Source: a virus
Lineage: Duplodnaviria; Heunggongvirae; Uroviricota; Caudoviricetes
DNA length: 22,920 nucleotides
Strand: one strand, 5' to 3'
Virus record (IMG/VR): IMGVR_UViG_2859777919_000008
Position 1 is the stretch's first letter. Each line of letters begins with the position of its first letter. Under the pieces are notes generated by a model. It was given only the letters and a program-made list of their open reading frames with translations, searched no databases and was not told where the DNA came from. This document shows positions 1,120 to 22,920 of this stretch, piece after piece. The position numbers and the translations under genes were made by a program.

Positions 1120-1189
1120 TGGAGCACCTCAAAAACACCATCATACACTAAATCAGTAAGTTGGCAGCATCACCTCATTCGTCTGTTCC

Positions 1190-1696
1190 TTAAATCTTCC
1201 AGGAAATTTCTGCATTGCCGTCAGCATCACCGGCACCTGTGAATTCAGCGTTGGTCAGCACCACGTTTTTGCCACTGACTGACGTGGACATGAATCCACC
1301 CAGCGGCACTTTGATGGATTCATCAGTGGAGACGACAACGTATACCGGATCGCCTTTTTTGATAGTGCTGGCATCAAAATCAGAACCGAGATTAACGGTC
1401 ACGTAGCCACGCTTCATGGCGTCGCCCGGGAAGTTCTTGCCTGTTCCCACCTGGCGAACCATGTCCGGCTGCGACGTGGTCGGATAAGGGCGCACGTAGA
1501 TCCCCTTCACCTTGTCTGCGGTATCACCATCTGCCAGCGGCACGAAAAAACCGTCATCATCGTATTTACCAGCCAGGCCATAGGCAGCGAAGGCGTTATC
1601 GGATTTAAGGACCACCGGTTCGACGGTTAAGTCCTGCGGGCGAGAGACAGCCCCGGCAATGCCAACAGGCATCCGGTACAGAAATACATTATTCAT
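1190..1696 (-). CDS. phage head-associated structural protein (function uncertain)
   Basis: 168 aa ORF immediately downstream of the head gene cluster, 3 nt after the preceding gene; its stop lies 15 bp from the IS1 end. Assignment is by gene context only. Confidence 0.5.
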   Translation of the reverse strand: MNNVFLYRMPVGIAGAVSRPQDLTVEPVVLKSDNAFAAYGLAGKYDDDGFFVPLADGDTADKVKGIYVRPYPTTSQPDMVRQVGTGKNFPGDAMKRGYVTVNLGSDFDASTIKKGDPVYVVVSTDESIKVPLGGFMSTSVSGKNVVLTNAEFTGAGDADGNAEISWKI

Positions 1697-1699
1697 TTT

Positions 1700-2920
1700 T
1701 TACCCTTTACGGTTTGCCCAGAATTCAGCGTTTTGTTTGTTCAGGGAAGCGATACTGGTCATGCCCATGTTTAGGCGCTGTGCATCGCCGGTGGTGGCGC
1801 GGGTGTTTCGCCCTTTGGCAACCTCAGACACGGCATTAAACGCCATGTCGACCGATTGTTTCGGTAATTTGCGGATATCCGCATCACCGACTATCTGGCG
1901 AACCAGCGTTTTGTCAGCAGAAGCCAGAACCTCGCGTTTGAACGCGGTCGGTTTCATCTTACGGCTCAGATCGATACCCGGAACGATAACTTCGGCACGC
2001 CAGGCTGAGTCACCAGTAATCGTGGTTTCCTCTTCATCGTCCTCGCCGTCACCGGTCGGATTATCGTCAGGCTTATTATCGTTATCGCCCGTGGCATTTC
2101 TTTCCAGCTTAGCCAGCAGGGCTTTCAGTAATGTTTTGAGGTCATCATCACTGTCGCCGGTTGGATCTCCGCCCATCTCTGGTGCTTTGTCCGGTAGTGG
2201 TTGCTGCGGGGACAGGTTGATGTTGAGATTAACGCCCTGCGGCAAATCCCCCTCATCTCCTGTAACCGATGCGGGAGCCGACTCCACCAGTTCGTTCATG
2301 GTGTCGGCATCTCCTGTCTTGATGGCCGCACGCATGCGGTTCCACCAGTTTTTCTTTTGATTTGCCATTGTGTCTCTGTCTCCAATTGCACAACGATTTC
2401 CGGCTCTGCCTTTAGGGACAAGAGCCACATGGTTTCCGGTAATATCGACCTGCTCGGCTTTACCTGGCTCGGTCTGCTCGTACTCCGCGTCATAGCCGCA
2501 CGACACTTCGCGCAGGCCATCTTCGATAAGCTGAATGGCGCTTTCGTCTTTGACGATAAGGTCAGCCAGCATCAAATCAGACTGCTCACCCGTCCCGCGC
2601 CGGACATTCTGGAGGTGCCCGACAGCAAGCTCTTTCCAGTTCTCGGGATTTACCAGCCGCACATTCCCGTTTTCATCTTCAGGATGCAGGATCGTGATGC
2701 TCATCCCTTCGAATGAGGCAAGCGTGGCCGGATGGAATACCTGCTCAGGAGAACGCGTGACGACTATTTCACCGAACTTATCGGGTTTCAGTTTTGGCAG
2801 GTCATCAGCACCATAGAGCTGCTTACCTGTTCGTCCTATCGGCACGTCTTTGCACAGCAACGAGCCGTCAGCCAGGCGGTATCGGGTTTCCCCGAGCCTG
2901 GTCTCAAAAAAGTATTTCAT
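1700..2920 (-). CDS. phage head protein, scaffold/maturation-like, with acidic Gly/Asp-rich linker
   Basis: 406 aa ORF tightly packed after the head morphogenesis gene; contains a long acidic low-complexity linker (TGDSDDD...GDGEDDEEE) typical of scaffold-type head proteins. Exact family not resolved. Confidence 0.5.
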   Translation of the reverse strand: MKYFFETRLGETRYRLADGSLLCKDVPIGRTGKQLYGADDLPKLKPDKFGEIVVTRSPEQVFHPATLASFEGMSITILHPEDENGNVRLVNPENWKELAVGHLQNVRRGTGEQSDLMLADLIVKDESAIQLIEDGLREVSCGYDAEYEQTEPGKAEQVDITGNHVALVPKGRAGNRCAIGDRDTMANQKKNWWNRMRAAIKTGDADTMNELVESAPASVTGDEGDLPQGVNLNINLSPQQPLPDKAPEMGGDPTGDSDDDLKTLLKALLAKLERNATGDNDNKPDDNPTGDGEDDEEETTITGDSAWRAEVIVPGIDLSRKMKPTAFKREVLASADKTLVRQIVGDADIRKLPKQSVDMAFNAVSEVAKGRNTRATTGDAQRLNMGMTSIASLNKQNAEFWANRKG

Positions 2921-2923
2921 GGG

Positions 2924-3706
2924 TTATGCTGCCCTTTTCATTGCGAATGGAACGCGAACAAACACGATCTCTTTATAGCAGCGGCAGTTTGGCAGCTCGC
3001 CCGCGTGGCCGGTCATGCCGTCCAAAGTTGGAGGTGAATCCCAGCGGACGAATTTACCTTTCATGTGATCGTGGGAATCTCGGACATCGCCATCATCGGC
3101 TGTACGCCAAATATAACCATCCGAGCCAATAGCTATCGCTCGGGCCATATCCAGCGCGCCCGTTGCTCTTCCCAGTTCCGTTCGGGCAATCAGATCGGCC
3201 CTAGACTTAGCAACATCGCCGGTAGATGCAATCTCTTTAGCAAACTGCTCCGCCCGACCACCGGTGACAACAGCCTCTATCGCTTTGTTCTGGATGTCGT
3301 ACACCCTGTCTGCGGCCTCGAGAGGCAGAGATTTGATGTACTTGACCTGTTCGGCGATGATGGATTGCATCACCTGGCCCACAGGAGCGCTTTCCACAAG
3401 ATTGCGGAGCTCGCGACTGATGTTCTTGCTGTGTTGCCGCCAAACTTTCTCGTTCTGCCGGGTTAGGTCCGCAGTAAAGTTTTCCGCGACCTTTGTCGCC
3501 CAGGGGGTGATGATTTCACTGTAACGCTCCAGCGCCGCAATAATTTCCGTGATACTGTCATTTGAACCATCGTAGCGACCATTTACGATGTCTCCGACCG
3601 CCCTCGCTATCCTGCGTAGGCTGGTTCGATACCGGATTTCCGCCTGACGGCTCCTGCGGTTCGTCATCAGGTTCGCCGATGCCGGGCGGCGCTTCATCTT
3701 CGGCAT
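2924..3706 (-). CDS. phage head morphogenesis (minor head) protein, SPP1 gp7 / Mu F-like
   Basis: 260 aa ORF following the portal gene, family-like C-terminal region (...IWRTADDGDVRDSHDHMKGKF...LPNCRCY). The annotated start overlaps the portal 3-prime end by about 149 nt, so the true start is uncertain. Confidence 0.65.
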   Translation of the reverse strand: MPKMKRRPASANLMTNRRSRQAEIRYRTSLRRIARAVGDIVNGRYDGSNDSITEIIAALERYSEIITPWATKVAENFTADLTRQNEKVWRQHSKNISRELRNLVESAPVGQVMQSIIAEQVKYIKSLPLEAADRVYDIQNKAIEAVVTGGRAEQFAKEIASTGDVAKSRADLIARTELGRATGALDMARAIAIGSDGYIWRTADDGDVRDSHDHMKGKFVRWDSPPTLDGMTGHAGELPNCRCYKEIVFVRVPFAMKRAA

Positions 3707-5024
3707 TCTCGATGTCCTCGTCGGTAATGGATGCCCCGATGCCGGTTACGTCAGAATTTTCTCGCAAATCAGTCATAGCGGCTTTCAGTGTCATCAGACC
3801 ATCACCCAGCGCCGTACTGATTGCGTTGGTGGTGTTTAACGCCACCGTTGAGCGATCGACATCAGACATTTGCCAGAGCGGGTTAAACTCAAACGTGAAA
3901 TCGTCCGGCAGCGGCTTGCCAAGTTCCGAACGATGCATGATGTCCAGTATCCGCCGCACCGGAAGACGTAAACGCCTCTCCTGCAACGAACTGATGCGAT
4001 CGTAATAGTTGGCAAGGTCTGCATCACCGGTAGAAAATCCTTTCGGGGACTGTCCGAACAACCGCACCAGTGGGATACCAACAGCGCCACTAATCTGTTC
4101 TACAAACTGCGAAAGGATGTCATCCAGACCACTGAAGCTGTACTGATGGGTTTCAAACTTATCCCGCGAGTCCATGAGCGTCATGCCTTCATTACTCTGG
4201 AACTGTCGAATCAGGTCGATATTCTTCAGCAACGCTTCATACGCAGGACCACCAAGTGCGATAAGCTCGCGTAGCTTCTCCACGCTGTAGGTACGCAAAT
4301 GCGCCTTGTAGACCAGCTGCGCCGCGCCGACAGTAGCGCTGTCGAACGCGGTAAGACGATCCCAGATACGCTCTACAACCGACATTCCCCATTCGTTCTC
4401 GGTCATCTTCTGCTGAAATGGCAACGTGACGCCATCAAAGCGAATCAGGCGACTGTGATGAATGCGCCAGGCAGGAATTCCCGTTGCTGTGGTCACCACA
4501 TCGTAAAACTCAGGTTTACCCAGGTCCGGCCCCATATCTTTAATGCGGCGGGTCAGTGCCGGGTCGACCATCCAGCGGTCGAGCGGGAGAATCCCCTTAA
4601 ACTTGCCCTTACCGATGGTTTCGGGTCGCAGCGGGGTCATTGGTGCCTACCCCTCAATCATGATGAAACCCACCGCGCCGCCGTAGAGGCGCGACCATTT
4701 CAGCACGTCATTCAGCGCATCCCAGATTTGCAACTCATCCAGTTGTGATTCGAGAATGCCACGATCTTTTGCATCAATTTCCGAAGTGATGCGAATGCCT
4801 TTGCGGGTCATATCATCCGGGATAGCATCGACTGCTTCGCCGATGATCTAGGATGAACGATAGGACCATTCCACCAGCATGCGGTTACGACTGGTGAAAT
4901 TAGCCCGGTAGGTGGATGCTGAGTGCTGGTTAGGTGTCTGCATCCCTACGCGGGCAATAAAATTCTCATAACCATCAGCTGTGGCCTGCACAGTTCGCCG
5001 CAGGGCTTGTTTGTTTCGTGCCAT
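3558..5024 (-). pseudogene. phage portal protein with two in-frame amber (TAG) codons
   Basis: ATG at 5024-5022 overlaps the large terminase stop (TGATG). One continuous frame runs to the stop at 3558 (488 sense codons) and is broken only by TAG at codon 59 (plus-strand cta 4848-4850) and TAG at codon 126 (cta 4647-4649). The 360 aa ORF 3558-4640 is the C-terminal part; the N-terminal part reads MARNKQALRRTVQATADGYENF... Confidence 0.7.
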
Positions 5025-6454
5025 CAGGCCTGTCTCCCCAGCTGTTCCCAGATATCCAGCGATGTATCGATTGGCGCGAAGGCCATAATGAATGCATCAG
5101 CAACGTTTGGTGACGGTATCTCGCGTTTTGCGAGGTCTTTTTTACTTTCGACCATCACACGTCCGTTACGGTCGAAATCACGATGAGGTGTTGTCAGTTC
5201 CAGTTTCAGCTTTTCAAGCAACGGACAACGAGAATCTATGCTGATCAGCTCATCCACAGGATACTGTTCTCCGTTGTTAATGGCGTTAAACGTATTTCTG
5301 AAACGGTCAGCCACCAGCCACCATGCCTGAGCCTTAAGATTTGCGAAAAAGTCTTTGTTGGGGATGCCGTTGTACTCGTCATCTGGCTCATGCACACCAG
5401 CACCGGCGTTAAACCTCTGGTAATTCACACGTCGCGCGTATGCGTTCTCGCTCTTCCGGTCAGCGTTAATTTCAGAGAATTTAGCACCGGCAGACGCACC
5501 AACACCGATAGAGTCGTAAACAATATCTGCTTCACGCTCCAGCGCCGCCTGATAAGTACGCTGGCAGCTCTTCAGTAATTCATCTTCTTTGGCCTTCCAT
5601 TCGTCGGCCCAGAAAACAACGGATCCGTGACGGTAAACGTTAGCGCACTTATCTGTACCACTGTCAGCCACGTCAAAGCCAATACGCTTTCTTCCACTGG
5701 GTTCGAAATTTAACGTTTTGTGCGCATCCACTGCGGCTTCTATCCAAGACAGTTTGATGATTGCCGCATCATCATCAGACTCCGGAACGCCCTCATACAC
5801 ATGTTTAAAACCATCCGGATCACGGCGTCGCGCCGCGTCGATAACCTTAAGCATGGTGTCAGACAGAAACGGATTTTCGTCATAGTTAATTTTGCGGATG
5901 AGAGTGCCTTCGGGCGGATCAACAACGAAGTTGCGCCAGACGAAATCAGTAACAAGTCCGGGGTTGAATATGAACCAGCATTCCGAACCCTCTTTACGGA
6001 TCGTTGGCTCCAGAATTTTCCACTGGTATTCCGTCAGTGCGTGGGCTTCTTCCAGCCACAACACATCGATCCCCTCCAGTGACTTAATTTCTTCGATGTT
6101 GCGCCATAATCCATAAAAAACAAATTCCGAGCCAGTAACCCGGTTAATGATTTTGTTGTTCAGAATACGGAAACGGTGCCGCAGACCAAACCTGTCTATC
6201 TGAATTTTGAGCAGGGTATACACCGACTCTTCGATTTTATTCTGGATCTGACGGGCACAACAAAAACGCAGGGTGTATTTATTCGACAGAAATATGGCAA
6301 TGCCAGCGGCATCCCATGATTTTGACGATGACCGACCACCATAAAGCACTTTGTTACGTGCCCGCATAGTCCAGAAACTACGTAAAGCCGGATTCAGCGT
6401 CGGTTTGGATGTCAGAGTAGAAGTCATTGAGGTCACGCTCTCCATTGCCATCAT
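5024..6454 (-). CDS. phage terminase large subunit
   Basis: ORF 5024-6535 carries a Walker A-like motif (YGGRSSSKSW) followed by a nuclease-type C-terminal region. A likely start near the internal Met cluster (MMAME, about 6454) overlaps the terS 3-prime end; start codon uncertain. Confidence 0.8.
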   Translation of the reverse strand: MMAMESVTSMTSTLTSKPTLNPALRSFWTMRARNKVLYGGRSSSKSWDAAGIAIFLSNKYTLRFCCARQIQNKIEESVYTLLKIQIDRFGLRHRFRILNNKIINRVTGSEFVFYGLWRNIEEIKSLEGIDVLWLEEAHALTEYQWKILEPTIRKEGSECWFIFNPGLVTDFVWRNFVVDPPEGTLIRKINYDENPFLSDTMLKVIDAARRRDPDGFKHVYEGVPESDDDAAIIKLSWIEAAVDAHKTLNFEPSGRKRIGFDVADSGTDKCANVYRHGSVVFWADEWKAKEDELLKSCQRTYQAALEREADIVYDSIGVGASAGAKFSEINADRKSENAYARRVNYQRFNAGAGVHEPDDEYNGIPNKDFFANLKAQAWWLVADRFRNTFNAINNGEQYPVDELISIDSRCPLLEKLKLELTTPHRDFDRNGRVMVESKKDLAKREIPSPNVADAFIMAFAPIDTSLDIWEQLGRQA

Positions 6455-7142
6455 CAATACCTGCATCACGGCGAAGACGATCAGCCTCCAGAGACACCTT
6501 ATCAGTGGCGGCCTTGCGGTAGGCTGTATCAGCAAATATTTTTCCTACCGTCGCAAGCGTGCCAACGATGGACTCAATACGAACTGTATTGCGCATCATT
6601 GCTTTCTCGGCGGCGCTGATATTTTCAATCAGCATCTTCCTTTCCTGGTCCCCATTAGCATCTTCCAGCGACACCAACCACCGACCAATATTCTCTGCAG
6701 CGACAAGGTTGTTAGCACGAAGGCGAAATAATTCGTCCTCGAGCGTCAACGCTTTAGCGTCCTCTATCACCTCATCTTTGAGCAGAAGGCGACGGGCATA
6801 ACCACCGTGTTTTAATGCCTGCTGGTTACCGGGTTGGAATGGGTTAGTCGGGGGATCGGTACGCATTCCGCGTATCGGTTTCGTATCCGGTGTAGATTCT
6901 GTTTTTAGTTGCGTACTTTTTTGTGTAAGGCCAGTAATGGCAGGCTTTCTGCTGGTACGCACTTTCCTTTTTTGCGTACCATTTTTGCAAACCTGCGTAC
7001 CGCCACTGCGTGCCCAACCAAGCTTTTTGGCCCTCTTCCTGATAGCCCCTTCTGTAACGCCGTATTTCTCGCCTATATCACGGAGGCTAAGGACTCCGGC
7101 CCGGTATGCCGATTCGATGGCCTCCCAGTCCGGTTTTGCCAT
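6378..7142 (-). CDS. phage terminase small subunit (HTH DNA-binding)
   Basis: 254 aa ORF directly upstream of and overlapping terL; N-terminal HTH-like segment (LSLRDIGEKYGVTEGAIRKRAKK). Confidence 0.7.
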   Translation of the reverse strand: MAKPDWEAIESAYRAGVLSLRDIGEKYGVTEGAIRKRAKKLGWARSGGTQVCKNGTQKRKVRTSRKPAITGLTQKSTQLKTESTPDTKPIRGMRTDPPTNPFQPGNQQALKHGGYARRLLLKDEVIEDAKALTLEDELFRLRANNLVAAENIGRWLVSLEDANGDQERKMLIENISAAEKAMMRNTVRIESIVGTLATVGKIFADTAYRKAATDKVSLEADRLRRDAGIDDGNGERDLNDFYSDIQTDAESGFT

Positions 7143-7336
7143 GATTATGCTTCCTGTGATTTACTGTTATCGCTGCCTGTCACAATAGGTTGCTTTAATT
7201 CTTCCTCATCACTCACTCCTGCGACGCTCCGTGGCAGGGCCCCCCACAGGAGTACCTTGTAAATGTAAGGTGTTTAAGCCTAAATTAAGTCGTATCACGG
7301 TTAAATAGCAAAGAAAAATTCACAGAAGGAAAGACA

Positions 7337-7849
7337 TTGATGGAGTGGATAAATGCTTTGATGAACTATTTTGTACTTCATCCATATCGCCTATGGGGGC
7401 TTCTTTTTATAATAGCGTTCACAAAATCCACTTTACTCATTTCGGCGATATTGCCACCAGCATCAATTATGATGGCCACTGTAATTACAGTCAGCAAGAC
7501 GACTCTTTCACCATGGGAAGCTGGAATCACGGTCATGAGTGGCGCATGGTGCGGTACTATCGTTAATTACCATCTTGGTATAATAATTGGGCATATCCCT
7601 CAACTTGCATGTATAATATCAAGCCGTTCCAATACAATAGAACGGGTTCGCCTTCAGTTGCAAAATAACTCTGTGTCAATACTTTTCACTTCGCGCTTTA
7701 TCGCCGTGCTGCGTTATATTGCTCCTTTGGTGGCAGGAATGTTGCAACTTCATCCAGTGAAAGTGTATACAGTGAGTCTGATTTCAGCTGCTAGCTGGTC
7801 AGCACTTTATGTTGGTAGTTTTAGCTTCGTGTTGCCTTTTTTTAGCTAA
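7337..7849 (+). CDS. DedA-family (VTT/SNARE-associated domain) inner membrane protein
   Basis: 170 aa hydrophobic ORF, AT-rich codon usage, opposite strand to the flanking phage genes. Motifs ILPPASIMMATV and SRFIAVLRYIAPLVAGM resemble DedA signatures (compare E. coli YqjA GRFIAFVRTLLPTIAG). Confidence 0.5.
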   Translation: MMEWINALMNYFVLHPYRLWGLLFIIAFTKSTLLISAILPPASIMMATVITVSKTTLSPWEAGITVMSGAWCGTIVNYHLGIIIGHIPQLACIISSRSNTIERVRLQLQNNSVSILFTSRFIAVLRYIAPLVAGMLQLHPVKVYTVSLISAASWSALYVGSFSFVLPFFS

Positions 7850-7937
7850 ACTGCCCATAAAAAGCTCTTGCGAATCCAGCTTCCCCCATTCCTCTGACAA
7901 CAGAATCTGATTTGAAGGATAATGAGTAAAATTACCG

Positions 7938-8408
7938 CTACCCCCCAAGGCATTGGATCCTGATGTACTCCTGAAGCATTCTCAATGCTGTCTGGTCGCT
8001 GATGATTCCGTCCCGGATACCGAGAACGTTTCGTCCAGCAACTGGAGAGAGTTCGACGGTGGCATCATTGCCCATGCCGGAGGCGCTGGAGGTTTCGGCT
8101 GAGGATGGCACAGGGCATTTTCCTTTGACGAGCACCCGACCACCATTATCAAGCTTGCGCCGAAGAGCATCATTTTCAGCTTTCGCATCAGCTAACTCCT
8201 TCGTGTATTTAGCATCGAGTGCATCAGCATCACGCTGGCGCTGCTGCATGTCAGTAATGGTTGCGTTCGCCAGCTTCAGTTCTCTTGCGTTTTTGTCGCG
8301 CTGCTCTTTGTAGGTAATGGCGTTATCACGGTAATGATTAACAGCCCATGACAGGCGGACGATGATGCAGATAACCAGAGCGGAGATAATCGCGGTGACT
8401 CTGCTCAT
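7938..8408 (-). CDS. Rz-like i-spanin (lysis)
   Basis: ORF 7938-8420; probable start [17 protein letters not shown]... at 8408 overlapping the endolysin stop. N-terminal TM segment plus coiled-coil region as in lambda Rz. Confidence 0.75.
7982..8188 (-). CDS. Rz1-like o-spanin lipoprotein, embedded in Rz
   Basis: ORF in an alternative frame wholly inside Rz: [22 protein letters not shown]... with lipobox (VVGC) and proline-rich region ([16 protein letters not shown]), the lambda Rz1 architecture. Exact start uncertain. Confidence 0.7.
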
Positions 8409-8902
8409 TGCTGCCCCCACAAACAGACTTCACGCTCAATCTCACGACGGGTCATCAGCCCTTTCCATTGCTTACCGCCAGCATATGTCCAGCGACATAG
8501 CTGGTCACATGCGCCTTTGATATAGCCCTGGTTTATTTTGCGAAGAAGCGTCGATGTTCTGAAATTGCCAGCGCCCACGTTGTAAACGAACGAGTAAAGA
8601 GCGCCGCGCGTTGTTTCCGGTATATCGACTTTGATGTACGGGTTAATTTGTCTGGCGACAGTGGCAAGGTCTTTATTCAGGAGAGCTTTGCATTCTGCTT
8701 CGGTATACGTTTTACCAGGCATGATGTCTTTTCCGGTGTGTCCGTGACATACAGTCCATACACCAATGATATCTTTGTATAGTATGTAGCTGACACCTTC
8801 CAGACCATCGTTACCACCTGGGCCAGTGATTAACACAGATGCTATAGCAACAGCCCCGCCACCAATAGCAACTGCAACAGCCTTGCGTAATGATGGCGAC
8901 AT
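8405..8902 (-). CDS. phage endolysin, lambda R / lysozyme family
   Basis: 165 aa [42 protein letters not shown]...[21 protein letters not shown], closely resembling lambdoid prophage lysozymes (RrrD/RrrQ type) with an N-terminal signal-anchor-like segment. Confidence 0.9.
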
Positions 8903-9015
8903 TATTCACCTCTCGCAGCCTTACTAGACTGGCCCCCTGAATCTCCAGACAACCAGTATCACTTAAATAAGTGATAGTCTTAATACTAGTTTTTAGACTA
9001 GTCATTGGAGTACAG

Positions 9016-9381
9016 ATGATTGATGTCTTAGGGCCGGAGAAACGCAGACGGCGTACCACACAGGAAAAGATCGCAATTGTTCAGCAGAGCTTTGAACCGG
9101 GGATGACGGTCTCCCTCGTTGCCCGGCAACATGGTGTAGCAGCCAGCCAGTTATTTCTCTGGCGTAAGCAATACCAGGAAGGAAGTCTTACTGCTGTCGC
9201 CGCCGGAGAACAGGTTGTTCCTGCCTCTGAACTTGCTGCCGCCATGAAGCAGATTAAAGAACTCCAGCGCCTGCTCGGCAAGAAAACGATGGAAAATGAA
9301 CTCCTCAAAGAAGCCGTTGAATATGGACGGGCAAAAAAGTGGATAGCGCACGCGCCCTTATTGCCCGGGGATGGGGAGTAA
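9016..9381 (+). CDS. insC: IS2 InsC (OrfA)
   Basis: [56 protein letters not shown]..., recognisable as IS2 OrfA; the ORF track starts 15 codons earlier. Confidence 0.9.
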
Positions 9382-10244
9382 GCTTAGTCAGCCGTTGTCT
9401 CCGGGTGTCGCGTGCGCAGTTGCACGTCATTCTCAGACGAACCGATGACTGGATGGATGGCCGCCGCAGTCGTCACACTGATGATACGGATGTGCTTCTC
9501 CGTATACACCATGTTATCGGAGAGCTGCCCACGTATGGTTATCGTCGGGTATGGGCGCTGCTTCGCAGACAGGCAGAACTTGATGGTATGCCTGCGATCA
9601 ATGCCAAACGTGTTTACCGGATCATGCGCCAGAATGCGCTGTTGCTTGAGCGAAAACCTGCTGTACCGCCATCGAAACGGGCACATACAGGCAGAGTGGC
9701 CGTGAAAGAAAGCAATCAGCGATGGTGCTCTGACGGGTTCGAGTTCTGCTGTGATAACGGAGAGAGACTGCGTGTCACGTTCGCGCTGGACTGCTGTGAT
9801 CGTGAGGCACTGCACTGGGCGGTGACTACCGGCGGCTTCAACAGTGAAACAGTACAGGACGTCATGCTGGGAGCGGTGGAACGCCGCTTCGGCAACGATC
9901 TTCCGTCGTCTCCAGTGGAGTGGCTGACGGATAATGGTTCATGCTACCGGGCTAATGAAACACGCCAGTTCGCCCGGATGTTGGGACTTGAACCGAAGAA
10001 CACGGCGGTGCGGAGTCCGGAGAGTAACGGAATAGCAGAGAGCTTCGTGAAAACGATAAAGCGTGACTACATCAGTATCATGCCCAAACCAGACGGGTTA
10101 ACGGCAGCAAAGAACCTTGCAGAGGCGTTCGAGCATTATAACGAATGGCATCCGCATAGTGCGCTGGGTTATCGCTCGCCACGGGAATATCTGCGGCAGC
10201 GGGCTTGTAATGGGTTAAGTGATAACAGATGTCTGGAAATATAG
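9339..10244 (+). CDS. insD: IS2 InsD (OrfB, DDE transposase domain)
   Basis: 301 aa ORF overlapping insC in the -1 frame, recognisable as IS2 OrfB. Confidence 0.9.
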
Positions 10245-18023: not shown

Positions 18024-18770
18024 ATGAAAAATATTGCGACAGGCGGCGTTCTGGAACGCATCCGCCGACTGACCCCGCCACATGTAACCGCCCCATTCAG
18101 AACGGTAGCGGAGTGGCGCGAGTGGCAACTTGCTGAAGGCCAGAAACGTAGCGAGGAGATCAACCGCCTGAATCGCCAGTTGCGGGTGGAAAAAATTCTG
18201 AATCGCTCAGGCATCCAGCCGTTGCACCGTAAATGCTCGTTTGCGAATTACCAGGTGCAGAACGACGGCCAGCGATACGCGTTAAGCCAGGCGAAATCCA
18301 TCGCCGATGAACTGATGACCGGGTGTACAAATTTTGCGTTCAGCGGAAAACCTGGTACCGGGAAGAATCACTTAGCGGCAGCTATCGGGAATCGCCTGCT
18401 GAAAGACGGTCAGACAGTGATTGTGGTTACCGTGGCTGATGTTATGAGCGCCCTGCACGCCAGCTATGACGACGGGCAGTCAGGCGAAAAATTTTTGCGG
18501 GAGCTGTGCGAAGTGGATCTGCTGGTTCTTGATGAAATTGGCATTCAGCGCGAGACGAAAAACGAGCAGGTGGTGCTGCACCAGATTGTTGATCGCCGGA
18601 CAGCGTCGATGCGCAGCGTGGGGATGCTGACAAACCTGAACTATGAGGTGATGAAAACATTGCTCGGCGAGCGGGTGATGGATCGCATGGTCATGAACGG
18701 CGGGCGCTGGGTGAATTTTAACTGGGAGAGCTGGCGTCCGAATGTTAGCCATTCGAGGGTTGTTAAGTAG
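18024..18770 (+). CDS. dnaC: DnaC-like replicative helicase loader (AAA+)
   Basis: 248 aa; ...SFANYQVQNDGQRYALSQAKS...NFAFSGKPGTGKNHLAAAIGNRLL...VDLLVLDEIGIQ...IVDRR...MLTNLNYEVMKTLLGERVMDRM... aligns along its length with E. coli DnaC (Walker A GKPGTGKNHLA, Walker B LLVLDE). Confidence 0.9.
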   Translation: MKNIATGGVLERIRRLTPPHVTAPFRTVAEWREWQLAEGQKRSEEINRLNRQLRVEKILNRSGIQPLHRKCSFANYQVQNDGQRYALSQAKSIADELMTGCTNFAFSGKPGTGKNHLAAAIGNRLLKDGQTVIVVTVADVMSALHASYDDGQSGEKFLRELCEVDLLVLDEIGIQRETKNEQVVLHQIVDRRTASMRSVGMLTNLNYEVMKTLLGERVMDRMVMNGGRWVNFNWESWRPNVSHSRVVK

Positions 18771-18784
18771 TTTCAGGAGGATTT

Positions 18785-19207
18785 ATGGCGAAACCTTTTA
18801 CTCCCGAACAGCGGGAAGAACTGAAGACGCGAATTGTGGAACTCGTGCATCAGGACGGTCGGGTCACGATTCGGCAGTTGTCAGATGAAACAGGTATCAG
18901 TCGTGCGTCTGTCGGTCGCTTATGCATAGAACTGGTCGCAAGTGGTGATGTATATAATTCTGGCTACGGCTTATTCCCGTCTGAACAGGCTCGCAAGGAC
19001 TGGCAAAGCGCCCGCAAAAAACTCTCGAGAGTAAAGGTGAGGAAACCGGTTGTTGTTGATCCGGACCTTATCTGGTCATTACCTGACGGAGAAATACGCC
19101 GCTACGACAGGCGCCTGAATATAATCTGTCGCGAGTGCCGGAAGAGCGAAGCTATGCAGCGTGTACTGGCTTTCTATCAGGGTAATTTTCAGGAGGCGAT
19201 ACTGTGA
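18785..19207 (+). CDS. hypothetical prophage protein with predicted winged-helix DNA-binding N-terminus
   Basis: 140 aa ORF with good coding character; N-terminal HTH-like segment (VTIRQLSDETGISRASVGRLCIELVASGDV). Confidence 0.45.
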   Translation: MAKPFTPEQREELKTRIVELVHQDGRVTIRQLSDETGISRASVGRLCIELVASGDVYNSGYGLFPSEQARKDWQSARKKLSRVKVRKPVVVDPDLIWSLPDGEIRRYDRRLNIICRECRKSEAMQRVLAFYQGNFQEAIL

Positions 19208-19264
19208 ATGAAATTAGCTATCAGGCTTCAATTACCGCTGGCATTCGCATCAAAGGAGAGGAGC

Positions 19265-19621
19265 ATGGAAATAAAACCAGAAGATGAGTTAAGCAATATC
19301 GTTTTATTTCCGGTAAAAGAGGATGACCCTCGTAATCAGGTTAATTTTCTTTATGAGCCATCGGAAAGACCATATTGCCATCACGCCTCTGTACGGGTTG
19401 ACGAAAAAGAGCGTCAGGTCCGCTGTAAAATCTGCGGTGCGGTTGTGGAGCCGTTTGACTGGATGCTCTCTGTGGCAAAAAGAGAAACCAGACTGGCAGA
19501 TGATGTAAGGCTATTGCGCCAGGAGGAACAGGAAAGGCGGAGAAATATAGAAAAGCTGATACAGATTGAGCGTAACGCGAAAGCGCGGATACGCAGGGCG
19601 ACAAAATCCAGAACTGAATAA
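19265..19621 (+). CDS. hypothetical prophage protein with zinc-ribbon-like Cys/His motif
   Basis: ORF 19208-19621; the internal start at 19265 (MEIKPEDEL...) has a strong SD (aaaggagaggagc). Contains CHH...CKIC and a basic/coiled C-terminus. Confidence 0.45.
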   Translation: MEIKPEDELSNIVLFPVKEDDPRNQVNFLYEPSERPYCHHASVRVDEKERQVRCKICGAVVEPFDWMLSVAKRETRLADDVRLLRQEEQERRRNIEKLIQIERNAKARIRRATKSRTE

Positions 19622-19768
19622 TTAAATTTAGCACTGTTAAAAATTTAATCCTTAACCGGAGGGATTTCTGCACCCTCAAATCATCAGGAGACCACCCGAA
19701 AGGGCGGGGAGCAGTCACACATCTGTTTCCGATAGCCCCGTTCTAATGCTACACTCTTTGATATTTTT

Positions 19769-20455
19769 ATGACCCCAATAAACATATTTATGACAGTTGC
19801 TGATTTCAAACGGCCCAAATTGGAGCTCCCAAACGGGGCAAACAAACTACTACTGCACTCTTGCTGTGCTCCATGTTCCGGTGAGGTGATGGAGGCGCTT
19901 CAGGCCTCGGGAATCGACTACACCATCTTTTTCTACAACCCGAACATTCATCCTCAGAAAGAGTATTTAATTCGTAAGGATGAGAATATTCGCTTTGCTG
20001 AACAACACGGCGTGCCGTTTATTGATGCTGATTACGACACAGACAACTGGTTTGAACGAGCCAAAGGAATGGAATGGGAGCCCGAACGAGGGATCCGTTG
20101 CACCATGTGTTTTGACATGCGTTTTGAGCGGACAGCGCTGTACGCCGCTGAAAATGGTTTCAGTGTGATCAGCAGTTCACTGGGCATTTCACGCTGGAAA
20201 AATATGCAGCAGGTTAACGACTGTGGGCGGCGAGCCGTCGCGCATTATCCGGGCATGGTGTACTGGGATTATAACTGGCGCAAGCAGGGCGGCTCGTCCC
20301 GTATGATTGAAATCAGCAAGCGCGAAAAATTCTATCAGCAGGAATATTGTGGCTGTGTGTATTCTCTGCGCGATACCAATCTACACCGCAAATCTCAGGG
20401 ACGCCCTCTTATCAAAATTGGTCAACTCCACTACGGTAAAGAAGAGAAGGAGTGA
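19769..20455 (+). CDS. queH: QueH-like epoxyqueuosine reductase (DUF208 family, Fe-S)
   Basis: 228 aa; family-like motifs [38 protein letters not shown] and [11 protein letters not shown] (QueH cluster-binding Cys signature). Start may be the internal Met at 19790. Confidence 0.7.
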
Positions 20456-20476
20456 TTTTATGGGGCACCTTTCTGA

Positions 20477-20506
20477 TTGATTTCATATTGGCGAGGTAAG
20501 TAGAAT
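20477..20506 (+). promoter_or_regulatory. putative sigma70 promoter of the hok mRNA
   Basis: -35 ttgatt (20477-20482), 18-bp spacer, -10 tagaat (20501-20506); the predicted start about 20511-20513 coincides with the 5-prime element that pairs with the mRNA 3-prime end. Confidence 0.4.
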
Positions 20507-20682
20507 GACTGCGGGTGCTTGAGGCTATCTGCTTCAGGCATGAACACCAAAAGGCAGATAGAGAAAAGCCCCAGTTAACATTACGCGTCCGGCAAGACGC
20601 TTAACATTAATCTGAGGCCAATTTCATGCTTTGCACATGTAGGTTAGCCTCTTACATGCCGAAAGGCAAGGAGAAGCAGGCT

Positions 20683-20838
20683 ATGAAGCAGCAAAAGGCG
20701 ATGTTAATCGCCCTGATCGTCATCTGTTTAACCGTCATAGTGACGGCACTGGTAACGAGGAAAGACCTCTGTGAGGTACGAATCCGAACCGGCCAGACGG
20801 AGGTCGCTGTCTTCGTAGACTACGAATCCAGGAAGTAA
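20683..20838 (+). CDS. hok: Hok/Gef-family type I toxin (membrane-depolarising peptide)
   Basis: MKQQKAMLIALIVICLTVIVTALVTRKDLCEVRIRTGQTEVAVFVDYESRK (51 aa) is nearly identical over most of its length to E. coli HokD/RelF and HokC/Gef; the ORF track starts 19 codons earlier in the same frame. Confidence 0.85.
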   Translation: MKQQKAMLIALIVICLTVIVTALVTRKDLCEVRIRTGQTEVAVFVDYESRK

Positions 20839-20915
20839 GAGTGACCGGGCGGGGAGCTGATCCCATCCCCGCCCACCTCTGATGTGTCAGGCATCCTCAA
20901 CGCACCCGCACTTAA

Positions 20916-20958
20916 CCCGCCCATCGCTGTGATCTCTCAGCGTTTCGGCGGGTTTTTT
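20916..20958 (+). terminator. rho-independent terminator of the hok transcript
   Basis: Stem cccgcc (20916-20921) / ggcggg (20947-20952) enclosing an inner hairpin cgctg/cagcg, followed by tttttt (20953-20958). Confidence 0.5.
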
Positions 20959-21087
20959 GTTGTTTATTTCCGGTGAATTTGATTCGCGCACCTTCGCAGA
21001 TAGAATCGACTCACTTAAGTAGCGCGCAGGGAGAAGAGGGATGGACCCCGAACAGGGGAGAGCTATTTATCTGGAAGGATTCTGAAG

Positions 21088-21375
21088 ATGAAAATCGAAG
21101 AATTGCGTGAAATTTTTAGTGAAAATGGCCTCTATGCTGTGCGCGTTGAGAATGGAGCGATTGTCAGCCATTGCCGCATTAGATGTTTGCAATCTCAACA
21201 AAGGAAGAGCGGTGCTGTGTTATTTTATTTTTGTAATGGACTTCTGACGGACGGTTTTATTTTGCGTGAGGACGAATTTGTCACATCATTACGGGTTTTG
21301 AAAGAGATTGGTTTTAAGGCTGGTTTTCTGCTTTTGCTGAAGAATAAACTCATCTACAATCTTGAGCAGGATTGA
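21088..21375 (+). CDS. hypothetical small prophage protein
   Basis: 95 aa ORF, AT-rich, overlapping the next ORF start by 4 nt (atga); no recognisable motif. Confidence 0.35.
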   Translation: MKIEELREIFSENGLYAVRVENGAIVSHCRIRCLQSQQRKSGAVLFYFCNGLLTDGFILREDEFVTSLRVLKEIGFKAGFLLLLKNKLIYNLEQD

Positions 21376-21720
21376 ACTCCTGCTGTGTAACACCGTGCCA
21401 CCGGAGAAAGCCGATGGCACATATACAACTGGTCAAACAAACCTCTTCCGGATTACTTCTCCCGGCGACGCCGGAGAGTTGCGATTTTCTGCATCAAATC
21501 AAAATAGGTGAGTGGATACACGCAGACTTTAAGCGTGTGTGTAACTACGCATTCCACAAGCGTTTTTTCAAACTCCTGCAACTGGGTTTCGATTACTGGA
21601 CTCCGGTCGGTGGGGCGATCACGCCTCGCGAACGAAAACTGGTGTCCGGTTTCGTTGATTACCTGTGTGAATCAGTAGGCCGGGAACATACGCCAGCTCT
21701 GAGCGAAGCCGCAGAGCAAT
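21372..21720 (+). pseudogene. hypothetical prophage protein, 3-prime end interrupted by IS600
   Basis: ORF 21372-21767; the native sequence (probable start MAHIQLVKQ... at 21414) ends at ...SEAAEQL where the IS600 end (tgaggtgtactggc, 21721) begins; the last residues of the called ORF are IS-derived. Confidence 0.45.
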
Positions 21721-21763
21721 TGAGGTGTACTGGCAATAGCGGACACTACCATTTGTTCTTTTT

Positions 21764-22582
21764 TTAAGCAGCCATCTGATGATATTTTTCCCTGAAGGCT
21801 GCCGGGGAGATATTCCCCAGACGAGAGTGACGACGCTGACGATTGTAGAAAATCTCAATGTATTCCCGTATTACTGAGATGGCTTCATCCCGGTTATTAA
21901 AACGATAGTGGCTCAGGCTCTCATTTTTCAGCGTTCCCCAGAAGCTTTCCATCGGAGCGTTGTCGTAACAGTTACCTTTACGCGACATTGATGTTTTCAG
22001 ACCAGACTGCTCCTGTATGACCCGGTAATCGTATGCGCAGTACTGTGAACCTCGATCAGAGTGGTGGATTAGCCCGGCAGGTGGGCGCTGGCTCCTGAGC
22101 GCCATAAACAGGGCTTTACCTGTCAGCTCTTTTGTCATGCGCTCTCCCATGGCGTAGCCGACAATTTCGCACGTATAAACATCTTTGATGCCAGCGAGGT
22201 ACAACCATCCCTCCTGTGTGGCAACATACGTCAGGTCCGCCACCCAGACCTGATTTGGTGCTGTAGGAGCGAACGTCTGGTTCAGCAGATTTGGCGCAAC
22301 TGGCAGATTGTGGTTCGAGTTCGTAGTCGCTCTGAACTTGCGTTTCTGCTTACAGCGTAGCCTTAGCTCCTTACGAAGACGTGCCAGTCGGTCACGACCA
22401 ACGATGATGCCATTCTCTGCCAGCTCCGTCTGGAGCCGCCGGGTTCCATATGTTTCGCGAGTGCGGATATGTGCCACCTTAATCTCCAGTTTTAGCCGCT
22501 CATCACTTTGTTTTCTGTCTGAGGGTTCATGCTGTACCCAGTTGTAATAACCGCTCCTGGATACACCAAATACCTGACACAT
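21764..22582 (-). CDS. IS600 OrfB (DDE transposase)
   Basis: 272 aa, identical in protein sequence to the OrfB of the copy at 16120-16938. Confidence 0.9.
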   Translation of the reverse strand: MCQVFGVSRSGYYNWVQHEPSDRKQSDERLKLEIKVAHIRTRETYGTRRLQTELAENGIIVGRDRLARLRKELRLRCKQKRKFRATTNSNHNLPVAPNLLNQTFAPTAPNQVWVADLTYVATQEGWLYLAGIKDVYTCEIVGYAMGERMTKELTGKALFMALRSQRPPAGLIHHSDRGSQYCAYDYRVIQEQSGLKTSMSRKGNCYDNAPMESFWGTLKNESLSHYRFNNRDEAISVIREYIEIFYNRQRRHSRLGNISPAAFREKYHQMAA

Positions 22583-22617
22583 CGCTTCAATGGGAAATTG
22601 TTGTCGCCATTGTTCGA

Positions 22618-22920
22618 TTAACGCGTATTTTTCAGCGACTCCTGTGCAAAATACGCTGTTGCTTTTTTTAATATATCTCGCTCAAGGCGAGCTTCATTTA
22701 ACGCCTTACGCAGTTGCAGAATTTCAGATTCCAGTTCAGCCACCGTGCGGGAACCAGGAGTACCGAGCCCTTTTCTGGCGGCGGTAACCCATTGTCCTAA
22801 AGTGCCTTCAGGAAGAGATAATCGGGAAGCGCCTTCACTGATCGAAAGTTGATTTTCAGGAACCGTTCTGACAGCTTCGGCTTTGAACTCTTTAGAGTAA
22901 CGTTGGGTTTTTCTGCTCAT
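22618..22920 (-). CDS. IS600 OrfA
   Basis: 100 aa; differs from the other two copies by one residue (VRTVPENQ vs VRTVLENQ; plus-strand cagg vs caag near 22857). Confidence 0.85.
   Translation of the reverse strand: MSRKTQRYSKEFKAEAVRTVPENQLSISEGASRLSLPEGTLGQWVTAARKGLGTPGSRTVAELESEILQLRKALNEARLERDILKKATAYFAQESLKNTR

Follow-up and report, generated by a model that had tools for sequence, protein, structure and literature searches.

A probable complete hok/mok/sok toxin-antitoxin module, closely allelic to hokW-mokW-sokW, in a rearranged lambdoid prophage

We analysed a stretch of viral DNA of 22,920 nucleotides (the window) and found that positions 20477-20958 very probably constitute a complete type I toxin-antitoxin module, hok/mok/sok, carried by a lambdoid prophage; it is a close allele of the hokW-mokW-sokW locus of Stx phages. 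The module is an ordinary copy of the well-known lambdoid-prophage hok/sok and a near-allele of one already characterised by experiment (PMC8621323); K-12 retains a 5'-truncated version as hokD (relF), of which this is the intact form. It lies inside an IS-disrupted, rearranged lambdoid prophage, downstream of queH. The late genes of this prophage are inverted relative to the early region, several IS elements are carried, and an IS3-family element truncates a DUF1367 gene ~900 bp downstream of the locus. Full-length relatives are found in ~70% of complete E. coli genomes. When the whole window was searched against complete E. coli genomes, at most 39% of it was covered at a single site. The locus comprises the following features.

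20477-20506, plus strand: hok/mok mRNA promoter (-35 TTGATT at 20477-20482, 18-nt spacer, -10 TAGAAT at 20501-20506)
20513-20958, plus strand: predicted full-length mok-hok mRNA (5' end at ~G20513, +/- 2; 3' end at the T-run 20953-20958)
20513-20524, plus strand: tac (translational activator element), GGGUGCUUGAGG; a longer version proposed earlier begins at 20511
20531-20541, plus strand: metastable-hairpin partner of tac (early hairpin 20515-20525 / 20531-20541)
20564-20574, plus strand: ucb / anti-SD box, AAAAGCCCCAG, from the full-length MFE and the Rfam consensus
20634-20564, minus strand: predicted Sok antisense RNA gene, 71 nt, coordinates transferred from the annotated sokW (L052 2571-2641)
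20614-20617, plus strand: mok Shine-Dalgarno GAGG, 8 nt 5' of the mok ATG, invariant in 29 relatives
20626-20838, plus strand: mok-type leader ORF, 70 aa, with a 19-codon leader (MLCTCRLASYMPKGKEKQA) in the hok frame, from the list of open reading frames
20647-20651, plus strand: dcb (downstream complementary box), GCCUC, from the Rfam consensus structure mapped onto the window
20669-20641, minus strand: sok promoter (-35 TTGCCT at 20669-20664, 17-nt spacer, -10 TAACCT at 20646-20641; read from the minus strand)
20668-20673, plus strand: hok Shine-Dalgarno AAGGAG, 9 nt 5' of the hok ATG, near-invariant in relatives
20683-20838, plus strand: hok CDS, 51 aa, MKQQKAMLIALIVICLTVIVTALVTRKDLCEVRIRTGQTEVAVFVDYESRK, from the list of open reading frames and Pfam PF01848
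20847-20874, plus strand: stable GC-rich hairpin (GGGCGGGGA / UCCCCGCCC), predicted to protect the processed mRNA at its 3' end
20895-20909, plus strand: fbi (fold-back inhibitory element), CCUCAA-C-GCACCCGC, the complement of tac apart from the bulged C20901
20915-20958, plus strand: Rho-independent terminator hairpin and U-tract, from the fold

The Hok product matched Pfam PF01848 HOK_GEF (E = 4.3e-23; 81 bits, cut-off 22); against the NCBIfam Hok subfamily it scored 55 bits, under the 73-bit cut-off. Shigella flexneri SFBU1023 and E. coli ECMA0423 encode the same protein at 100% identity, and PGAP names it hokD / HokD in identical genomes, where mok and sok are unmarked. The leader matched Rfam RF01794 as a full-length model over 20513-20688 (117 bits, gathering score 59, E = 2e-26). 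This match lies on the hok-sense strand, and therefore alone is no proof of an antisense transcript. A relaxed Rfam search of 20400-21050 returned nothing further, apart from a chance snoRNA match (E = 0.62). An initial annotation, made by eye, had proposed a complete hok-type locus with its Hok CDS at 20683-20838, not situated downstream of relBE. The open reading frame, the Pfam and Rfam matches and the conserved, covarying pairing of the mRNA ends bear out these proposals, and queH is the upstream gene.

The same annotation had recognised neither a separate mok frame nor an antisense gene, and on both points it needs correction. The mok frame is present at 20626-20838, in frame with hok and with a Shine-Dalgarno sequence of its own, which ucb masks in the full-length fold and dcb masks in the Rfam (open) structure. 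Its start at 20626 is the annotated mokW start in 933W (L052 2633), and the same start is annotated for mokC in K-12. Our comparative set comprised 29 aligned sequences, window included, with Escherichia and Photorhabdus among them. The aligned mok ATG is conserved in 27/29 of these; it stands 57 nt 5' of the hok ATG and in frame in 20, and 58 nt away, out of frame, in 4.

On the opposite strand, alignment of 933W sokW and K-12 sokC placed a predicted cis-encoded sok gene at 20634-20564, complementary to the mok translation-initiation region. The predicted Sok RNA has a single-stranded 5' tail (GCAAAGCAU), a long hairpin and the 3' end GGGGCUUUU; its fold (-30.2 kcal/mol, z = -4.9) leaves the 5' tail free and includes the hairpin and a U-tract. 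Its 5' end falls at mok ATG + 8, as for K-12 sokC. The minus strand reads TTGCCT-17-TAACCT as the sok promoter, and the gene has a terminator hairpin; the predicted transcription start, G20634, is 6 nt downstream of the -10, and the -35 overlaps the hok Shine-Dalgarno sequence of the opposite strand. TAACCT is a weak match to consensus, and a consensus scan of 20300-21150 called no minus-strand promoter, the sok promoter falling under the 9-of-12 threshold. The promoter was located by homology to sokW and sokC and from a published promoter mutant. This region is the same as in 933W save one spacer base, 20656, and its -10 is identical to the sokW -10 whose mutation in published work unmasked HokW toxicity. 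The 'pro-less' sokW mutant primer, YO-421, converts TAGGTTAG to CCGGCTCG; judging from the primer sequence, the changed bases would correspond to window positions 20640-20647.

The promoter-like sequence noted earlier at 20477-20506 is indeed present there. It has 9/12 consensus matches and is one of two sigma-70-like sites in the consensus scan of 20300-21150. All relatives carry a -10-like hexamer (TAGAAT, TATAAT, TACAAT, TATATT or similar) at a constant distance 5' of a conserved GCGGG, and further upstream of this hexamer their sequences are unrelated. The first position of the RF01794 model falls on 20513, and the predicted mok-hok mRNA can be aligned with the 933W hokW locus and with the K-12 hokC and hokD loci. 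At the 3' end, the fold agrees with the terminator proposed at 20916-20958: CCCGCC (20916-20921) pairs with GGCGGG (20947-20952) and is followed by TTTTTT (20953-20958). A terminator consensus scan of 20300-21150, which allows loops of up to 8 nt, found none; it missed the terminal hairpin seen in the fold because the loop is 25 nt long and contains an inner hairpin. That inner hairpin is formed by a lineage-specific 23-nt insertion (20921-20943). Where it sits, relatives read CCCGC-TTCG-GCGGG-TTTTT, without the insertion, and the inserted form occurs in just 2/5426 complete E. coli genomes. We considered an obvious repeat element as its origin and rejected this, as the window holds no second copy. 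The insertion makes the 3' tail to be removed longer, and could also retune the activation delay. Upstream of fbi, the GC-rich hairpin at 20847-20874 forms in every fold and is kept in relatives with GC/GU changes (helix 16). From its likeness to the last stem-loop of R1 Tr-hok (PMC9841398), we suggest that it protects the 3' end of the truncated mRNA, where it could stop exonucleases.

The two ends of the predicted mRNA are complementary. The 3' element at 20895-20909 (CCTCAACGCACCCGC) is the reverse complement of the 5' element at 20511-20524 (GCGGGTGCTTGAGG) plus one extra C (20901), which bears out the 14-bp complementarity with one bulged base reported in the initial annotation. The outer two pairs, G20511-C20909 and C20512-G20908, may be absent from the RNA, because G20513 is where the Rfam model starts, as does the R1-type 5' end, and these pairs form in 12/29 and 10/29 relatives, respectively; the conserved tac/fbi core is 12 bp (20513-20524 with 20895-20907). 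The full-length mRNA has an MFE of -189.6 to -195.4 kcal/mol, and the MFE fold of 20511-20958 (-195.4 kcal/mol, compared with -139.3 +/- 6.8 for shuffles, z = -8.3) holds this end pairing.

Such complementarity might be a coincidence of two GC-rich segments with no regulatory role, and shuffled GC-rich 3' UTRs do score strongly against the 5' 16-mer (mean -18.6 kcal/mol), with 4/2000 dinucleotide shuffles reaching the observed RNAduplex value of -27.3 kcal/mol. However, the 3' UTR site is the best plus-strand partner of the 5' 16-mer across the 22.9-kb window, the pairing belongs to the global MFE, and the same element has been experimentally defined in R1 (PMC9841398). Moreover, register-free duplex prediction gave a tac/fbi duplex of 12-14 bp in 29/29 aligned sequences (window included) and in 933W, kept by gain or loss of the bulge and by compensatory substitutions: GGGUGC/GCACCC versus GGGCGC/GCGCCC, GAGG/CCUC versus GAGA/UCUC versus GAAG/CUUC, and a UA/CG change at alignment column 6/405. 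In the MAFFT alignment the distal half of the helix appeared to be disrupted for Photorhabdus, with 11-13 cells unpaired at columns 10, 12 and 14. We rejected this break as a register artefact: Escherichia has the bulged C, Photorhabdus lacks it, and the register-free duplex there is 12-14 bp. The comparative data have effectively refuted a chance origin, to which we attach a negligible probability. The proposal that this is the hok-type 5'/3' pairing, in which the full-length transcript would be inert, is supported by the conservation and covariation of the pairing.

Three alternative partners of tac are predicted: fbi, the metastable partner and ucb, with the elements as defined in PMC9841398. 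U20516, the sole variable position of the tac core, covaries both with fbi (UA 16 / CG 11) and with the metastable partner (UA 16 / CG 12), and is bulged in tac/ucb. The metastable hairpin is the MFE structure for the first 48 nt as well as for the isolated leader; 95.9% of its cells are paired in 29 relatives, compared with 29-55% in slid controls, and compensatory changes occur at two pairs, UA/CG among them. In the full-length MFE, ucb covers the mok Shine-Dalgarno sequence (20568-20570 with 20616-20618, 20572-20574 with 20612-20614), and in the Rfam consensus it pairs with tac (20566-20572 with 20513-20520), while dcb pairs with the mok Shine-Dalgarno region (20614-20618) to give the Sok-target hairpin of the open form. 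All open-form pairs are canonical in the window. The pairs of ucb with either partner, like the five SD/dcb pairs, are invariant in 29 relatives; as tac/ucb and SD/dcb never vary, covariation is uninformative on either. The hairpin around ucb and the Shine-Dalgarno sequence covaries at four pairs (helix 5), a signal that is not assignable to one strand because the hairpin also complements the Sok terminator stem. Constrained energies were compared because the unconstrained fold of the truncated mRNA gave no textbook open form. Imposing the open form carries a penalty of 19.7 kcal/mol on the full-length RNA and of 1.9-2.7 kcal/mol on an RNA ending at 20880. Since the SD/ucb pairing and the metastable hairpin persist in the MFE of the truncated RNA computed without constraint, the switch is thermodynamically permitted rather than predicted outright.

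The sequence elements, the predicted pairings, and the conservation and covariation of those pairings were thus all observed at this locus. That both RNAs are transcribed, that 3' processing and translational coupling take place and that this copy is toxic we infer by analogy, and the mechanism that follows is built on homology with the R1 paradigm. A constitutive promoter would produce the ~446-nt mok-hok mRNA, during whose synthesis a local hairpin would hold the 5' tac. Once the 3' end had been transcribed, tac would pair with fbi and ucb would cover the mok Shine-Dalgarno sequence, so that the full-length RNA would be neither translated nor bound by Sok. Slow 3' exonucleolytic trimming would then shorten the mRNA as far as the GC hairpin (20847-20874), and the terminator and fbi would be lost. 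In the trimmed RNA, tac could switch to ucb and the mok Shine-Dalgarno sequence could move into the SD/dcb target hairpin, an open form that would permit translation of mok, with that of hok coupled to it. An abundant but unstable 71-nt Sok from the opposite strand would pair with the target region, and the duplex would be destroyed. Should Sok synthesis end, the stable mRNA pool would yield Hok and the inner membrane would be damaged.

Whether such a module still acts in this prophage, and to what end, can be read in more than one way. The locus could be structurally complete yet physiologically silent or decaying, killing and stabilising nothing in an IS-ridden, defective prophage. The rearranged and IS-cut surroundings, with the truncated DUF1367 gene nearby, the lineage-specific terminator insertion and the weak sok -10 are in keeping with silence, and a preprint summarises reports that the chromosomal hokA, hokB and hokC are unable to mediate post-segregational killing (bioRxiv 10.1101/2025.08.07.668861). 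Against this, we found no inactivating lesion: the hok and mok frames are open, and tac, ucb, the Shine-Dalgarno sequence, dcb and fbi of this copy match the conserved consensus. The sok promoter is the functional sokW promoter bar one spacer base, Hok is one C-terminal residue off the toxic HokW, and loss of sok would itself be lethal if Hok is still toxic. On balance we consider a silent locus improbable. The mechanism might instead be as described and serve chiefly as a lysis aid de-repressed on prophage induction, or as an abortive-infection defence, and not for maintenance or addiction. In Sp5, mitomycin C reduces sokW RNA and increases HokW, dependent on RecA, and deletion of hokW-sokW cuts the count of released phage by half (PMC8621323); hok genes are also ~4-fold enriched in prophages. 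However, the prophage in the window looks defective, with its inverted late genes and several IS elements, which makes phage release unlikely as a current selective benefit here. We hold a main role in lysis or defence to be possible but doubtful. Whatever its present role, a complete hok/mok/sok module remains our reading of the locus.

The segment 20616-20640 covers the mok start region, the loop of the target hairpin and the complement of the Sok 5' tail. Among three co-resident copies of hokD/W type found in a single Shigella flexneri genome, no two have the same version of it. We tentatively suggest, as a conjecture with the odds against it, that this Sok-recognition segment may evolve several-fold faster than the rest among prophage hok copies, through diversifying selection for mutually insulated antitoxin specificities. 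A genuinely fast-evolving recognition segment would be relevant to the coexistence of several hok copies in one genome without cross-talk, and insulation would let every prophage keep an addiction or lysis switch private to itself.

The significance of the locus beyond correct annotation is limited. The 933W locus (Stx2 phage; Sakai prophage Sp5; AF125520; Takada et al. 2021, PMC8621323), likewise prophage-borne, shares 92% nucleotide identity over ~20493-20917. Its HokW is identical to Hok at 50/51 residues, residue 50 being R here and E in 933W. Both loci have the in-frame mok start, the sok start at mok ATG + 8, the 71-nt Sok length and the 18-nt Sok hairpin extension, and share the sok -35 and -10, tac, ucb, the Shine-Dalgarno sequence, dcb and fbi. 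They differ at 7/25 bases in 20616-20640, where the complement of the Sok 5' tail lies, compared with 7% in the remaining mRNA. The -35 region and the upstream gene also differ (queH here, L0139 in 933W), as does the sequence past fbi, where 933W lacks this terminator and the window terminator carries the 23-nt insertion. HokW is toxic on induction and is neutralised by sokW expressed from its own promoter, an effect that depends partly on RNase III and Hfq; smaller hokW RNAs have been seen in Sp5 (PMC8621323).

The K-12 loci retain parts of this arrangement. In hokD (relF, Qin prophage), which shares its PGAP name with the window gene, the CDS hardly differs as far as residue 44, and the 3' UTR shares the GC hairpin and the fbi sequence (CATCCTCAACGCACCCGC) and has a CCCGC-TTCG-GCGGG terminator. 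Homology begins only at ~20668 (AGGAGAAGCAGGCTATG), with relE upstream; K-12 hokD therefore lacks the promoter, tac, ucb, mok start and sok, all of which are present in the window, and is left with an orphan fbi. The window locus thus displays the intact ancestor of K-12 hokD, which is useful where hokD serves as a model. In K-12 hokC (gef)/mokC/sokC, the elements follow the same order, mok is in frame with hok, and tac and ucb are identical to those of the window. Its Hok is ~80% identical, the 18-nt extension of the Sok region is missing, and the sokC -10 is CACTCT, compared with TAACCT here. Its 3' UTR has been replaced by IS186 soon after the stop codon, and fbi has consequently been lost.

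Plasmid R1 hok/sok (parB; PMC9841398) is a plasmid-borne locus with proven post-segregational killing, whereas the window locus is prophage-borne and its role is putative. The UTRs of the two are largely unalignable outside the conserved boxes, and HokW, one residue off this Hok, is only 44% identical to R1 Hok (PMC8621323). The R1-type plasmid locus nevertheless has the same layout, with its terminator hairpin directly after fbi. Its tac/fbi, ucb/SD and SD/dcb pairings and its metastable hairpin all have predicted counterparts in the window, as do the overlapping mok, the antisense Sok and the 3' hairpin protecting the truncated mRNA. Our comparative set provides clean in silico support, from outside plasmid R1, for the multi-state model of hok mRNA.

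The coordinates that the initial annotation gave for this hok locus were all exact against the sequence, including those of the hok CDS and of the terminator claimed at 20916-20958, whose hairpin and T6 run are present in both the sequence and its fold. The elements now placed in the region, with hok mRNA elements named by the definitions in PMC9841398, are as follows.

19769-20455, phage-borne queH (epoxyqueuosine reductase; Pfam QueH, E = 2e-65)
20477-20506, plus strand, predicted hok/mok mRNA promoter TTGATT-18-TAGAAT, one of the region's two sigma-70-like sites
20511-20524, plus strand, 5' element GCGGGTGCTTGAGG, of which 20513-20524 is tac
20515-25 / 20531-41, plus strand, metastable hairpin, the minimum free energy (MFE) fold of the nascent 48 nt
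20564-74, plus strand, ucb (anti-SD box) AAAAGCCCCAG, lying over the mok Shine-Dalgarno (SD) in the full-length MFE and partner of tac in the Rfam consensus
20614-17, plus strand, mok SD GAGG
20616-20640, Sok-recognition segment, between the mok SD and the sok -10
20626-20838, plus strand, mok ORF, sharing the hok frame after a 19-codon leader, transferred from 933W mokW
20634 to 20564, minus strand, predicted Sok antisense RNA gene, transferred from 933W sokW
20647-51, plus strand, dcb (downstream complementary box) GCCUC, partner of the SD region in the Rfam consensus
20669-64 and 20646-41, minus strand, predicted sok promoter TTGCCT, 17-nt spacer, TAACCT, before the G20634 start
20683-20838, plus strand, hok CDS, a 51-aa ORF (Pfam HOK_GEF, E = 4e-23)
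20895-20909, plus strand, 3' element (fbi) CCTCAACGCACCCGC, the reverse complement of the 5' element plus one extra C (20901)
20916-21 / 20947-52, plus strand, terminal hairpin CCCGCC/GGCGGG, then T6 (20953-58)

The MFE structure of 20511-20958 holds exactly the pairing of mRNA ends that had been proposed, at -195.4 kcal/mol versus -139.3 +/- 6.8 in shuffles (z = -8.3). A duplex search with the 5' 16-mer against the 3' UTR gave -27.3 kcal/mol, a value reached by only 4 of 2000 dinucleotide shuffles, and this partner was the best plus-strand site across the 22.9-kb window. The comparative data are stronger evidence for the pairing than these fold and shuffle statistics. From representative genomes we retrieved 47 related loci and aligned the 29 in which both mRNA ends are present, spanning Escherichia, Shigella, Kluyvera, Citrobacter, Pantoea and Photorhabdus. 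A tac/fbi duplex of 12-14 bp was kept in all 29 with differing letters: GGGUGC/GCACCC in Escherichia versus GGGCGC/GCGCCC in Photorhabdus (one pair being UA in 16 and CG in 11), and GAGG/CCUC versus GAGA/UCUC versus GAAG/CUUC. The bulged C was present in some relatives and absent in others. Conservation is poor at the outermost two pairs (20511, 20512), and Rfam's model begins at G20513; the real helix is therefore probably 12 bp.

Compared with RNA family models, the leader (20513-20688) scored 117 bits with Rfam RF01794 (gathering score 59), in an end-to-end match. This 157-position model is named 'sok antitoxin'; its match lies on the plus strand, in the hok sense, and extends over the full leader, tac through hok AUG; the 71-nt antisense strand is not matched. 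Read at face value, the match would mis-assign the antitoxin strand, and the antisense gene was therefore sought separately. Megablast against phage genomes returned 79 records, among them the Stx2 phage 933W at 92% identity, in which mokW, hokW and a 71-nt sokW are annotated. Coordinate transfer through this alignment placed both the mok frame and the Sok gene, neither of which had been identified by eye in the initial annotation. The 5' end of K-12 sokC, at the mokC ATG + 8, stands in the same relation as that of the window's Sok. On the minus strand, a predicted sok promoter, TTGCCT-17-TAACCT at 20669-20641, stands upstream of G20634 and is identical to that of 933W bar one spacer base; as mapped from the primer, the promoter-less sokW mutant of Takada et al. 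(PMC8621323) would alter exactly the bases at window 20640-47. Folded, the predicted Sok RNA leaves 9 nt unpaired as its 5' tail, followed by a long hairpin and GGGGCUUUU (-30.2 kcal/mol, z = -4.9). Relatives conserve the mok ATG: among the 29 aligned sequences (window included), 20 place it in frame at 57 nt from the hok ATG, and 4 place it out of frame at 58 nt.

The metastable hairpin was 95.9% paired in relatives, versus 29-55% for slid controls. The tac/ucb and SD/dcb pairs were invariant in 29/29 sequences, which fits elements with several obligatory partners; covariation is therefore uninformative for both. The sole variable position in the tac core, U20516, is bulged in tac/ucb and covaries with both its other partners. 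In folding models the forced open form cost 19.7 kcal/mol in full-length RNA versus 1.9-2.7 when the RNA ends after the 20847-74 GC hairpin, energetics that would agree with a switch; the truncated RNA's unconstrained MFE differs from the open form.

By homology, the module should operate as hok/sok of plasmid R1 does. The full-length mRNA would be closed and inert until slow trimming from its 3' end let it refold and permit mok/hok translation; were Sok to bind instead, the duplex would be degraded and neither frame translated. HokW, the nearest homologue, is toxic and is neutralised by sokW with its own promoter, in part through RNase III and Hfq; mitomycin C induction lowers sokW and raises HokW, and deletion of the hokW-sokW locus halves phage release (PMC8621323). 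The copy here, in a defective prophage, could act in addiction, as an aid to lysis or in defence against phages; in killing assays, several chromosomal hok loci are reported to be inactive (bioRxiv 10.1101/2025.08.07.668861). The motif CUACGAA (20820-20826) spans the hok Tyr47 codon (TAC, 20821-23), and TACGAA is invariant in 29/29 relatives, synonymous positions too. CUACGAA is the tRNA-Arg(ACG) anticodon-loop motif recognised by TadA, and Tyr-to-Cys recoding by A-to-I editing has been reported in hokB, C, D and E mRNAs. Hypothetical editing of A20822 would give Hok its second cysteine.

Within its lambdoid prophage, the locus has queH immediately upstream, in keeping with the earlier statement that it is not downstream of relBE, and a hypothetical gene then DUF1367 on the other side; queH-hok adjacency recurs in prophages of E. 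coli IHE3034 and FDAARGOS_944. Directly 3' of the hok terminator, ~80 nt upstream of ORF 21088-21375, a second promoter-like site (20979-21006, TTGATT-16-TAGAAT) shares both hexamers with the hok promoter; this hypothetical 95-aa ORF had no Pfam match. The prophage shows degradation, with DUF1367 interrupted by an IS3-family element at ~21720-21767. DUF1367 ends after ~117 of 198 profile positions; the element is on the minus strand (region 21372-22920), with a 272-aa orfB (rve and HTH_21 domains, 21764-22582) and orfA running from 22618 off the window end, and genomes matching the region name IS600 and IS2. Matched to other genomes, 1175-8924 and 8925-21720 have opposite orientations, the late genes (terminase, head morphogenesis) being inverted relative to the early region, and among complete E. 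coli genomes the share of the window covered at any single place is at most 39%. The prophage thus appears rearranged, probably via IS elements.

At least 80% of the 525-bp locus was covered by a match in 3799 of 5426 complete E. coli genomes. Two complete 'E. coli' genomes, FDAARGOS_943 and FDAARGOS_944, match the locus at 100% identity, as does Shigella flexneri SFBU1023 at the level of the Hok protein. Prophage enrichment of hok genes is already known, and the allele's nearest relative is annotated and studied. What is specific to this copy is a terminator-loop insertion and its own version of the Sok-recognition segment. The 23-nt insertion CCATCGCTGTGATCTCTCAGCGT (20921-20943) forms an inner hairpin, whereas the terminator of relatives is a simple CCCGC-TTCG-GCGGG; just 2 of the 5426 genomes have the inserted form, and no second copy of the insertion was found in the window. 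A simple terminator scan of the region did not pick up the terminal hairpin, because its loop is 25 nt long and folds into that inner hairpin. The segment at 20616-20640 takes in the start of mok, the loop of the target hairpin and the bases complementary to Sok's 5' tail. Chosen post hoc, it showed 28-48% substitutions against 7 of 9 close relatives, versus 7-15% across the remaining mRNA (in these seven, Fisher p = 0.0002-0.007; not significant for the related loci L007 and L012). Three hokD/W-type copies in S. flexneri SFBU1023 (L004, L009, L011) each carry a different version, and such differences might insulate Sok specificities between co-resident copies.

K-12 hokD differs from the window locus in lacking tac, ucb, mok and sok. 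Its intact fbi is an orphan, a 3' regulatory element without a 5' partner. Because its alignment to the window starts only at ~20668, with relE sequence upstream, and it keeps the same fbi and terminator as the window (3400-3620 of the K-12 Qin locus L051 versus 20839-20958), we infer that K-12 hokD is a 5'-truncated remnant of a window-type locus.
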